Made by a program: the position numbers and the translations under genes. From Escherichia coli (GTDB lineage: Bacteria; Pseudomonadota; Gammaproteobacteria; Enterobacterales; Enterobacteriaceae), in NCBI RefSeq assembly GCF_048403405.1, contig NZ_CP183129.1: 64,000 bases of DNA, one strand, 5' to 3'. This document shows positions 48,459 through 51,623 of the stretch, piece after piece; the first letter of the stretch is position 1, and each line of letters opens with the position of its first letter. Under the pieces are notes generated by a model that made no database searches, was not told the DNA's origin, and saw only the letters and a program-made list of their open reading frames with translations.

Positions 48459-49427
48459 TTACTTCTGATTCAGGCTGCCAGAGAGGATGCAGAATACCCC
48501 CATCAGGTCAGCGTGACGGATGGTGACTTCCGTCTTTTCATTCACTTTTGGCTTGGCATGGTAGGCAATCCCCAGCCCTGCCGCTTTGATCATCGGCAGG
48601 TCATTGGCTCCATCACCAATCGCCACGGTCTGCGCCAGCGGGATTTCATACTCCTGCGCGAGGCGAGTCAGAGTTTTCGCTTTGTACTGCGCGTCTACGA
48701 TGTCGCCGATCACATTGCCGGTAAATTTACCGTCCATGATCTCCAGTTCATTGGCTACCACGGCTGTCAGGCGCAGCTTGTCGCGCAGGTATTCAGCAAA
48801 GAAAGTAAAGCCGCCGGAGGCAATCGCCACTTTCCAGCCCAGCGTTTCCAGCTTGAGCACCAGTTGCGTTAAGCCTGGCATCAGCGGCAGATTTTCACGC
48901 ACCTGTTGCAGAATATTGGCGTCAGCGCCTTTCAGCGTCGCCACGCGGCTGCGCAGGCTGGCGGTAAAATCGAGTTCGCCGCGCATCGCCCGTTCGGTTA
49001 CCTCCGCCACCATCTCGCCCGTTCCGGCCAGTTTGGCAATTTCATCAATACATTCAATCTGGATGGCGGTGGAATCCATGTCCATCACCAGCAAACCCGG
49101 CGTGCGCAGGTGCGGGATTTTCCCCAGCGGCGCGACATCCAGCTGCGCTTCGTGGGCCAGGCGCGTAGCCCGCGCGGTGAGTGAACCTGCCAGACGAATC
49201 ACCTGATAATCTTCCACGCACCAGGCGGCAACAATCACCATCGCAGCGCCCAGTTTGCTCTGGTATTGGGTCAGACGTTGTTTATCCAGCCCACGACCAT
49301 ACAGCAGCCAGCCGCTACGACCTGCGTGGTAATCCAGTGGCATCACTTCATCACCACTTAATGAAAGAGGCAGACCCGGCCATAAAGAGACATCTTCAGG
49401 CAGGTCGCACCAGGTAATGTTAGGCAT
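48459..49427 (-). CDS. serB: phosphoserine phosphatase
   Basis: Track ORF 48459..49580; MPNITWCDLPEDVSLWPGLPLSL starts 51 codons in (322 aa); DxD motif LLVMDMDST. Confidence 0.95.
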   Translation of the reverse strand: MPNITWCDLPEDVSLWPGLPLSLSGDEVMPLDYHAGRSGWLLYGRGLDKQRLTQYQSKLGAAMVIVAAWCVEDYQVIRLAGSLTARATRLAHEAQLDVAPLGKIPHLRTPGLLVMDMDSTAIQIECIDEIAKLAGTGEMVAEVTERAMRGELDFTASLRSRVATLKGADANILQQVRENLPLMPGLTQLVLKLETLGWKVAIASGGFTFFAEYLRDKLRLTAVVANELEIMDGKFTGNVIGDIVDAQYKAKTLTRLAQEYEIPLAQTVAIGDGANDLPMIKAAGLGIAYHAKPKVNEKTEVTIRHADLMGVFCILSGSLNQK

Positions 49428-49542
49428 TAAGGCTCCTGTAAAATCGTTCGAAGCAGGGAAAATAACGCATGAGGCTACCTTGTATCCATTGCTTCTGGCA
49501 ACATTAAGTCTCAAATTGTACTGACCCCAAAAAGTTGGACAG

Positions 49543-50394
49543 TTAAACACGAGGCATATAGGTCTGATTCCGATATTCAATTGGAGTCAGACCTTTTAAT
49601 TTCAGGCTAATTCTTCTGCTGTTGTAGTATTCAATATATTCCGTAACAGCATCCTTCAGTTCGCTTATATTACTGAACTCATCAAGATAAAAACACTCCG
49701 ACTTTAAGGTTCCAAAGAAACACTCCACCACAGCATTATCCAGACAATTGCCTTTTCTGGACATGCTTTGTTTAATACCATGTTCTTTAAGGATATTTTG
49801 ATATCTTCTCATACGATACTGCCATCCCTGGTCAGAGTGCAGAACAGGATGCTCGTGAGGATTAAGCTTTTTGAATGCCTGATCGAGCATATTCTCAACC
49901 ATGTTCATCACTGGTCTTTCCGAAAGGCTGTAAGAAATAACTTCGTTGTTGAAGAGATCTATTACTGGAGACAAATACAGCTTGCGCCCATTGACTACAA
50001 ATTCAGTAACATCGGTAACCCACTTCTCGTTTGGCCGCGTAGCCTTGAAATCTCTTTGGAGAACATTAGGGGCGGTTTGCCCTACCTCTCCTCTGTAAGA
50101 GCGGTATCGCTTGACCTTAATCGCTGCTTTAAGTGAGAGGGTTCCCATCAGGCGCTGAACAGCTTTATGGTTAATCTGTTTCCCTTCTCGATGAAGAGAC
50201 AGCGTTACCCTACGGTATCCGTATCGGCCTCTATTCTCGTGATAAATCTCACCAATACGCTTTTTAACGTCCGCATACTTGTCAGGCTTGCTGAGAGCCT
50301 TTAGATGGTAATAAAACGTACTGCGCGGTATCTCCGCAGCCCTGAGAAGCTCATCAAGAGGATAAAACTGCCTTAGCTCGTTGAGTACTTTTAC
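49543..50394 (-). CDS. insK: IS150 transposase orfB (DDE domain), expressed as orfAB fusion by -1 frameshift
   Basis: Frame lacks an ATG for its first ~80 codons; track lists only the distal 201 aa; overlaps orfA stop. Confidence 0.85.
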
Positions 50395-50912
50395 TTTTTC
50401 GTGGGATGAGCTAAGGCTTTCAGCTTTTTTAGATACATAAGCCGCGTTTCAAGAAATCGAACTTGCCTTTCAAGATCCTCAATGCGTCGGTCTTTTGACA
50501 GCTCCAATGCTGATGCCGCTTTTTCTGGATCAACTGATATTGCAATGTTTCTTTTGGTGCCAATCTTGAGCGCGCGTAAACCAGCTTCTCCGCGCTCTTC
50601 ATAGACCTTCAGCCACCTGGCTACAGAACCACTACCAGCAAGCATAAAGTGAGCAGCAGCCTGATTAAGGGACATGTGCTGCTCGATCACAGCTTTCACG
50701 ACCTTAATACGCAACTCTGGATCAGCACTAACGCCTTTAGGTTTGGGAATTAAACCTTTTTCTCCATGTTTTTCATAGAGGGCAACCCATGTCCTGACCT
50801 GGGTTCGGGGGACACCAAAACGTGCCGAGATGATCCTGTAACCATCATCAGTTGTGAAGTAGTGATTCACGACTTCAAGGCGCTTTTCAAAAGGGTATTT
50901 TGGCTTTGACAT
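50391..50912 (-). CDS. insJ: IS150 transposase orfA (HTH)
   Basis: 173 aa MSKPKYPFEKRLEVVNHYFTTDDGYRIISARFGVPRTQVRTWV... Confidence 0.9.
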   Translation of the reverse strand: MSKPKYPFEKRLEVVNHYFTTDDGYRIISARFGVPRTQVRTWVALYEKHGEKGLIPKPKGVSADPELRIKVVKAVIEQHMSLNQAAAHFMLAGSGSVARWLKVYEERGEAGLRALKIGTKRNIAISVDPEKAASALELSKDRRIEDLERQVRFLETRLMYLKKLKALAHPTKK

Positions 50913-50978
50913 ATTAGGGGCTATTCCATTTCATCGTCCAACAAAATGGGTGCAGTACAAATTTTCAAAGGGTGGAAG

Positions 50979-51623
50979 ATGGCTCGCACAAAACTGAAAT
51001 TCCGGCTGCATCGGGCAGTGATTGTCCTGTTCTGTCTTGCCTTGTTAGTGGCGCTGATGCAGGGGGCGTCATGGTTTAGTCAAAACCACCAGCGTCAGCG
51101 TAATCCACAGCTGGAAGAACTGGCCCGCACCCTGGCGCGTCAGGTGACGCTGAACGTTGCACCGCTGATGCGTACCGACTCACCGGATGAAAAACGCATT
51201 CAGGCGATCCTCGATCAGTTAACGGATGAAAGCCGTATCCTCGACGCGGGCGTGTATGACGAACAAGGCGATCTTATCGCCCGTGCTGGCGAAAGCGTCG
51301 AAGTGCGCGACCGGTTGGCGCTCGACGGCAAAAAAGCGGGCGGCTATTTTAACCAGCAGATTGTCGAACCAATTGCGGGTAAAAACGGACCGCTCGGCTA
51401 TCTGCGCCTGACGCTCGACACCCATACGCTCGCTACCGAAGCCCAACAGGTGGATAACACCACTAACATTTTACGCCTGATGTTGCTGCTCTCACTGGCA
51501 ATCGGCGTAGTGCTGACCCGCACGCTGCTACAGGGTAAACGCACCCGCTGGCAGCAATCGCCCTTCCTGTTAACCGCCAGCAAACCGGTGCCGGAAGAGG
51601 AAGAAAGCGAGAAAAAAGAGTGA
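50979..51623 (+). CDS. ytjB: membrane protein YtjB (Smp)
   Basis: Track ORF 50946..51623; MARTKLKFRLHRAVIVLFCLALLVALMQG starts 11 codons in. Confidence 0.85.
   Translation: MARTKLKFRLHRAVIVLFCLALLVALMQGASWFSQNHQRQRNPQLEELARTLARQVTLNVAPLMRTDSPDEKRIQAILDQLTDESRILDAGVYDEQGDLIARAGESVEVRDRLALDGKKAGGYFNQQIVEPIAGKNGPLGYLRLTLDTHTLATEAQQVDNTTNILRLMLLLSLAIGVVLTRTLLQGKRTRWQQSPFLLTASKPVPEEEESEKKE

Follow-up and report, generated by a model that had tools for sequence, protein, structure and literature searches.

The window, a stretch of 64,000 nucleotides of an Escherichia coli genome (contig NZ_CP183129.1), carries on its minus strand a complete copy of the insertion sequence IS150 (Table 1). In a sequence alignment, 1439 of its 1443 positions matched the IS150 of K-12 MG1655, and copies 100% identical to it were found in many E. 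coli genomes, where they are annotated as 'IS3-like element IS150 family transposase'. The termini of the element read TGTACTG...CAGTACA and form imperfect terminal inverted repeats (inverted-repeat pair I1). The sequences flanking the element align to the serB-ytjB intergenic region of K-12 (locus L027), where they overlap by 3 bp (3807-3809) on an otherwise empty site; the AAT found at both ends was therefore assigned as a target-site duplication. With two open reading frames overlapping in the -1 register, helix-turn-helix and DDE domains, the termini and duplication just described, and near-identity to the reference, the element is an intact IS150, belonging to the IS150 group of the IS3 family.

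The insertion (49514-50962, with flanks at 49427-49516 and 50960-50981) lies within the divergent intergenic region of serB and ytjB (smp). The insertion point is 19 bp upstream of the ytjB start codon according to the K-12 annotation, a position from which the element could change the expression of ytjB or serB. When 5,426 complete E. coli genomes were searched for IS150 at the serB-ytjB site, none gave a match covering at least 80% of the IS plus flanks, and consequently the insertion looks recent or strain-specific.

Table 1. Features of the IS150 copy and of its frameshift region (positions of the window).
Feature	Position	Strand	Basis
Complete IS150, 1443 bp, ends 5'-TG...CA-3'	49517..50959	-	Near-identity to MG1655 IS150
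Target-site duplication AAT, 3 bp	49514..49516; second copy 50960-50962		Empty K-12 site
orfA (InsA/InsJ), 173 aa, helix-turn-helix; stop TAA at 50393-50391	50391..50912	-	ORF and Pfam
orfB frame, -1 relative to orfA, DDE (rve) catalytic domain; stop at 49545-49543	49543..50448	-	ORF and Pfam
AUG (Met159) in the orfA frame, two codons ahead of the heptamer; possible InsB start, also needing a frameshift	50436..50438	-	Inferred role
Slippery heptamer A_AAA_AAG in X_XXY_YYZ phase; orfA codons CUA-AAA-AAG, Leu161-Lys162-Lys163	50424..50430	-	Phase, conservation, literature
Spacer CUGAAA, 6 nt, from heptamer to stem	50418..50423	-	Best stem begins 6 nt past the heptamer
Stimulatory stem-loop: 5' arm GCCUUAGCUC (50417-50408), 28-nt loop (50407-50380), 3' arm GAGCUAAGGC (50379-50370)	50370..50417	-	10 bp, 100% complementary (pair I12)
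G_AAA_AAG directly 5' of the orfA stop, in the loop of the stem-loop (site of the original prediction)	50394..50400	-	Non-canonical

OrfA has the C-terminus ...HPTKK, and its gene ends, as originally predicted, in ACG AAA AAG TAA, the minus strand at 50402-50385 reading ACG AAA AAG TAA AAG TAC. The orfB frame had been described as open from the G overlapping this stop and devoid of ATG for about 80 codons. The sequence GTA AAA GTA CTC does follow from that G, and no ATG, GTG or TTG occurs in the -1 frame for 82 codons past the orfA stop, the first such codon being an ATG at 50148; the frame, however, is already open from 50448, which gives it an overlap of 58 nt with orfA. In the window copy orfB has no start codon of its own, and the OrfAB protein must arise by -1 frameshifting inside the orfA/orfB overlap. 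A search of the conceptual OrfAB fusion against Pfam matched HTH_28 (E = 1.6e-23) and HTH_23 in the N-terminal part, followed by a full-length match to rve (E = 2.7e-28, profile positions 2-102 of 102), with rve_2 and HTH_21 matching as well. A separate InsB product was reportedly found by Vogele et al. in 1991 to be frameshift-dependent too, and the AUG of Met159 may be its start. The codon is AUG or GUG in E. coli IS150 variants and ACG or ACC in the relatives from Erwinia, ISKpn8 and Buttiauxella, and is thus not conserved.

Within the 58-nt overlap, A_AAA_AAG at 50430-50424 is the sole heptamer of the X_XXY_YYZ type that is in phase with orfA, its first A being the third position of a codon. 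Folding of the 58-nt segment containing the downstream hairpin gave a minimum free energy of -16.4 kcal/mol with a z-score of -4.26 (none of 200 shuffled sequences was as good), the z-score being only modest, -1.39, when the hairpin was folded in a longer context of 106 nt. Perfect stems of at least 10 bp that start 4-9 nt downstream follow 0.16% of the positions in the window. The string AAAAAAG occurs in the window at 24 sites (16.7 expected), and a stem of at least 10 bp follows just one of them, the IS150 heptamer, the next best stem being 7 bp long. Both the orfA stop and the G_AAA_AAG run adjoining it lie inside the 28-nt loop. The two arms of the stem are coding, the 5' arm for Ala-Leu-Ala in orfA and the 3' arm for Glu-Leu-Arg in orfB, and part of their conservation is therefore at the protein level.

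Two further pairings were considered and rejected. An H-type pseudoknot, in which the loop sequence GUAAAA would pair with UUUUAU just past the stem, was discarded on its geometry by inspection, as it leaves only 2 nt to bridge the 10-bp stem. Pairing of the loop sequence UAAAAGUAC with GUACGUUUUA, about 55 nt downstream, appeared in one minimum free energy fold, itself no better than the folds of shuffled sequences (z = +0.16); Buttiauxella has an altered loop partner, and the partner further downstream coincides with the conserved coding motif STFYYH. An Rfam scan of the element returned no match to a frameshift-element family. It did return a sub-threshold match to the mir-15 precursor inside orfA (50638-50697, minus strand), which scored 20.5 bits where the gathering score is 57.3; the small hairpin concerned lies in coding sequence, and the match is almost certainly due to chance.

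The closest known system is the same element, the IS150 of E. coli K-12 (insJ/insK; Schwartz et al. 1988), whose frameshift was described by Vogele et al. 1991. The two copies share the length of 1443 bp, the heptamer, the spacer, both arms of the stem, the 173-aa OrfA and the 456-aa OrfAB, and differ in their insertion site, serB-ytjB here and the hokA/glyS region in K-12. The four substitutions between them consist of a change in the orfA stop, one synonymous change, and two amino acid changes in OrfB, with Gly221 and Val306 in the window copy in place of Ser and Ala in K-12. The change in the stop, at window position 50392 (IS position 568), turns the UGA of K-12 into UAA; it falls within the hairpin loop, leaves the Val of orfB unaltered, and also converts the GUG annotated as the start of insK in K-12 into GUA. 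It is the only base by which the cassette departs from that of K-12. An alignment to the reference element, which the original prediction had proposed as a check, accordingly found the slippery sequence undisrupted.

To compare the two candidate sites across relatives, a close and a diverged set were used. The close set comprised seven copies, 86-100% identical over the region, from a scan of genome contigs that yielded only relatives of at least 90% identity; both the heptamer and G_AAA_AAG are invariant in all seven, and for this reason the close copies are unable to discriminate between the two sites. The diverged set comprised 14 IS150-group plasmid elements retrieved by tblastn, with OrfB identity ranging from 95% to about 40%, from Klebsiella, Enterobacter, Raoultella, Citrobacter, Ralstonia, Agrobacterium (ISAtu3), Bacillus, Enterococcus, Fusobacterium, Finegoldia and Lactiplantibacillus. 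ISAtu3 was left out of the scoring, its orfA/orfB overlap not being resolvable, and the scored total, close copies included, was 17 relatives. In 16 of these 17, A_AAA_AAG or A_AAA_AAA (A_AAA_AAR) stands in the orfA phase at Leu-Lys-Lys, and a stem begins after a spacer of 6 nt; some relatives have a run of seven A's. ISKpn8 and the unnamed plasmid elements of the group (enterobacterial, Bacillus, Enterococcus, Fusobacterium and Lactiplantibacillus) share with IS150 this motif and spacer as well as a stem formed between the orfA Ala-Leu-x and orfB Glu-Leu-Arg codons. They differ in the size of the loop (28 to about 46 nt) and in the position of the orfA stop, which lies 18-90 nt past the heptamer across the relatives.

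Two individual elements deviate from this pattern in other ways. An IS150 copy from Enterobacter sp. Cy-643 (L003:695-875) carries UCA where orfA would otherwise stop; its orfA is consequently six codons longer and ends at a UAA inside the 3' arm of the stem. In a relative of about 65% identity from an Enterobacter hormaechei plasmid (CP114145.1; L014:783-789), the heptamer is degraded to UCAAAAG in place of AAAAAAG, the spacer and stem being intact. This element is still annotated as a single frameshifted transposase; it may be in decay, or it may represent an A_AAG variant of low efficiency.

Covariation of the stem was assessed on 11 distinct sequences, with the distance to the heptamer fixing the 5' arm and the Glu-Leu-Arg codons fixing the 3' arm, irrespective of complementarity. 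In the resulting 12-pair helix 88.6% of the cells were paired, compared with 15-45% in controls in which the partner was slid by 1-3 columns. Compensatory changes, in which both sides differ, were found in 4 pairs (9 cells), a result reached by none of 500 shuffles, in arms that are both coding. In three lineages, Ralstonia, ISEnfa3 and Finegoldia, the position of the 5' arm is kept and the arm pairs with a relocated, nearer 3' arm. Thus, the cassette, including a long-range stem between codons of orfA and orfB, is conserved with compensatory changes in IS150-group elements of Proteobacteria, Firmicutes and Fusobacteria. The segment 50430-50370 of the window combines the heptamer, the downstream structure, and the conservation and covariation expected of a programmed -1 frameshift signal.

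The location of the shift was also approached through the protein databases. Both possible 456-aa fusions were built and subjected to an exact look-up in the NCBI protein collection. The fusion joined at A_AAA_AAG (...MYLKK-AESLSSSHEK...) is present there as an IS150 transposase, and the fusion joined at the orfA stop (...HPTKK-VKVL...) is absent. On DNA identical to that of the window copy, RefSeq/PGAP annotates a 'programmed frameshift' CDS, present on 433 contigs, which is the former fusion with Leu161 replaced by Pro; its join is placed at the C just 5' of the heptamer (junction at 50432). The proline appears to be an artefact of this join, which re-reads the C of CUA (UAU C|CU AAA AAA GCU), and hence the annotation pipeline too places the shift at the upstream heptamer. 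The RefSeq IS150 transposases (P0002-P0016) read MYPKKAESL, with a proline encoded by neither frame; the biologically expected sequence is MYLKKAESL.

Frameshifting in IS150 is an already known, ordinary feature of the element and has been textbook material since 1991. In that year Vogele et al. reportedly described the production of the transframe protein, the heptanucleotide A AAA AAG together with a potential stem-loop, and a shift by about one third of the ribosomes; the signals reportedly lie within 83 bp, and mutation of the stem is reported to lower shifting by about 80%. In the survey of Sharma et al. 2014 (PMC4066793), insJ of the IS150 group of the IS3 family belongs to cluster A_AAA_AAG_37, which is marked true, with no Shine-Dalgarno stimulator and with a downstream structure. 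The entry gives the motif at codon 163, a frameshift product of 456 aa and a zero-frame product of 173 aa (PMC4066793), and the same paper calls IS150 a proven ribosomal case with a stem-loop stimulator, citing Vogele et al. 1991 (PMC4066793). In the measurements given there, A_AAA_AAG shifted at 0.29% when unstimulated, at 4.3% when combined with the stimulator of IS911 and at 39% with that of IS3, tetramers without a stimulator stayed at about 0.15%, which is background, and A_AAG reached 5.6% only with a pseudoknot (PMC4066793).

IS911, IS3 and E. coli dnaX resemble IS150 in having an A_AAA_AAG or A_AAG motif read by the single E. coli tRNA-Lys, with a 3' RNA structure a few nucleotides further on, and in IS911 and IS3 the product is likewise an OrfA-OrfB fusion transposase. 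The stimulators differ: IS150 relies on a simple hairpin with a long loop, unaided by an upstream Shine-Dalgarno element ('SD N / structure Y', PMC4066793), unlike IS911, with a Shine-Dalgarno element and a three-way junction, IS3, with a pseudoknot, and dnaX, with a Shine-Dalgarno element and a hairpin. Inspection of the sequence upstream of the heptamer in the window copy, GAAACGCGGCUUAUGUAUCU, revealed no evident Shine-Dalgarno stimulator, in agreement with the entry 'SD: N' in the published table (PMC4066793).

From these results, a mechanism may be put forward. Ribosomes translating orfA would reach A_AAA_AAG with P and A sites both occupied by the single tRNA-Lys, and a fraction of them would slip back by one base, probably re-pairing from AAA-AAG to AAA-AAA, and continue in the orfB frame. 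The 10-bp hairpin 6 nt downstream (50417-50370) would then be situated at the mRNA entrance and, by resisting unwinding, would stimulate the slippage. The slipped ribosomes would produce the 456-aa OrfAB, a transposase with helix-turn-helix and DDE domains, whereas those that do not slip would melt the hairpin, read ten further codons and terminate at the UAA of the opened loop, with the 173-aa OrfA as their product. The anatomy and reading phase of the cassette, the thermodynamic and comparative support for its stem, and its identity to the reference are direct observations. We put the probability that the IS150 of the window makes OrfAB by hairpin-stimulated -1 slippage on A_AAA_AAG (50430-50424), with G_AAA_AAG-UAA being loop sequence and not the shift site, at roughly 0.93. 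Frameshifting at the IS150 heptamer itself is taken from the literature; the details of the tRNA re-pairing and the level of shifting in the present host are inferred. The original prediction was therefore right in kind, both as to IS150 and as to programmed -1 frameshifting as the source of OrfAB. Its further suggestion that the element is functional also gains support, since the intact cassette, the intact reading frames, the 3-bp duplication and an insertion site absent from 5,426 genomes are those of a copy that is probably active.

What did not hold was the position of the site. The shift had been placed at 50385-50402, in the run at the orfA stop, which was regarded as the classic arrangement of the IS3 family; that arrangement, in which a heptamer is separated by a spacer from a 3' structure, is found 30 nt upstream, at 50430-50424. 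The earlier assignment amounts to a 'shifty stop', at which tRNA-Lys would slip from AAG to AAA on G_AAA_AAG while termination is awaited. The run and the adjoining stop are real, no other tetramer in E. coli is as shift-prone as A_AAG, and the -1 frame is open at the orfA stop, so that a shift there would also yield a 456-aa fusion. With only five A's, however, G_AAA_AAG is not an X_XXY_YYZ heptamer: the P-site AAA would need to re-pair on GAA, and the A-site tetramer A_AAG alone fits the pattern. RNA folding, suggested with the original prediction as a way to look for a downstream stem-loop, did reveal one, after the upstream heptamer and not after the run at the stop. Among stems beginning 4-9 nt past the run, the best is 5 bp long, typical of the background of the window, and in a fold of the 84 nt downstream of it 107 of 200 shuffled sequences were as good (z = +0.16); as noted above, tetramers lacking a stimulator shift at background level (PMC4066793). 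G_AAA_AAG is found directly before the orfA stop in the close IS150 relatives and in two distant ones, L019 and L022, but is absent there in the other lineages, including the 65% identical elements of Klebsiella and Raoultella, and one IS150 copy even has its stop displaced by six codons. In the orfB frame the run reads GAA AAA GUA, coding for Glu-Lys-Val, a motif conserved in OrfB of the relatives, and the recurrence of GAAAAAG is explained by the conservation of these codons. Together with the absence of the stop-joined fusion from the protein collection and the published motif position at codon 163, not 173 (PMC4066793), this makes a shift at the stop very improbable as the source of OrfAB. 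Equally doubtful is a weaker version, in which ribosomes that have passed the main heptamer would meet a second, low-level shifty stop in the loop. Such a site, if real, would add a minor form of OrfAB in which another linker of 10 residues replaces AESLSSSHEK, and the run directly before the orfA stop in the distant L019 and L022 would then be no coincidence.

The hairpin-stimulated slippage at the upstream heptamer has also to be weighed against two explanations that dispense with ribosomal frameshifting. The catalytic protein would need no frameshift if orfB were translated alone, by re-initiation or translational coupling at the orfA stop, as the annotation of K-12 MG1655 implies: there, insK starts at 3721198 with a GUG that overlaps the UGA stop of insJ. 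In the window copy this GUG is GUA, which is not a start codon, and independent initiation of orfB at that point is consequently unavailable. The long stretch of 82 codons lacking ATG, GTG and TTG in the -1 frame points the same way, as does the current RefSeq annotation of a single frameshifted CDS; moreover, OrfB alone would be without the N-terminal helix-turn-helix DNA-binding domain. Vogele et al. (in 1991) also reportedly found the synthesis of InsB to be frameshift-dependent. We therefore give independent translation of orfB very little credence, less even than a shift at the stop. Least credible of all is a fusion formed by transcriptional slippage, RNA polymerase adding or dropping an A in the A6 run, as six A's are short for efficient polymerase slippage. 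Transcriptional slippage does occur in some IS150-group elements of the IS3 family (IS1447, PMC6211511), and A7 runs are present in some relatives, but an RNA hairpin that is conserved, covaries and begins exactly 6 nt downstream is what marks a ribosomal stimulator, and IS150 is listed as a proven ribosomal, stem-loop-stimulated case (PMC4066793).

The practical consequence of placing the shift at A_AAA_AAG concerns annotation: if the frames are joined at the orfA stop, the resulting transposase has ten wrong residues (164-173). Beyond correct annotation, the importance of the site is small. Fragments of IS150 that match the E. coli element at 93-100% identity also occur in assemblies labelled as Collinsella, Marinobacter, Methylobacillus, Alkalicoccobacillus and a Bacillota MAG (L007, L009, L010, L011 and L012). 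They are carried by contigs 0.3-20 kb in length or lie at the ends of contigs, and are most simply explained as E. coli contamination or mis-binning and not as a true occurrence of IS150 in these organisms.
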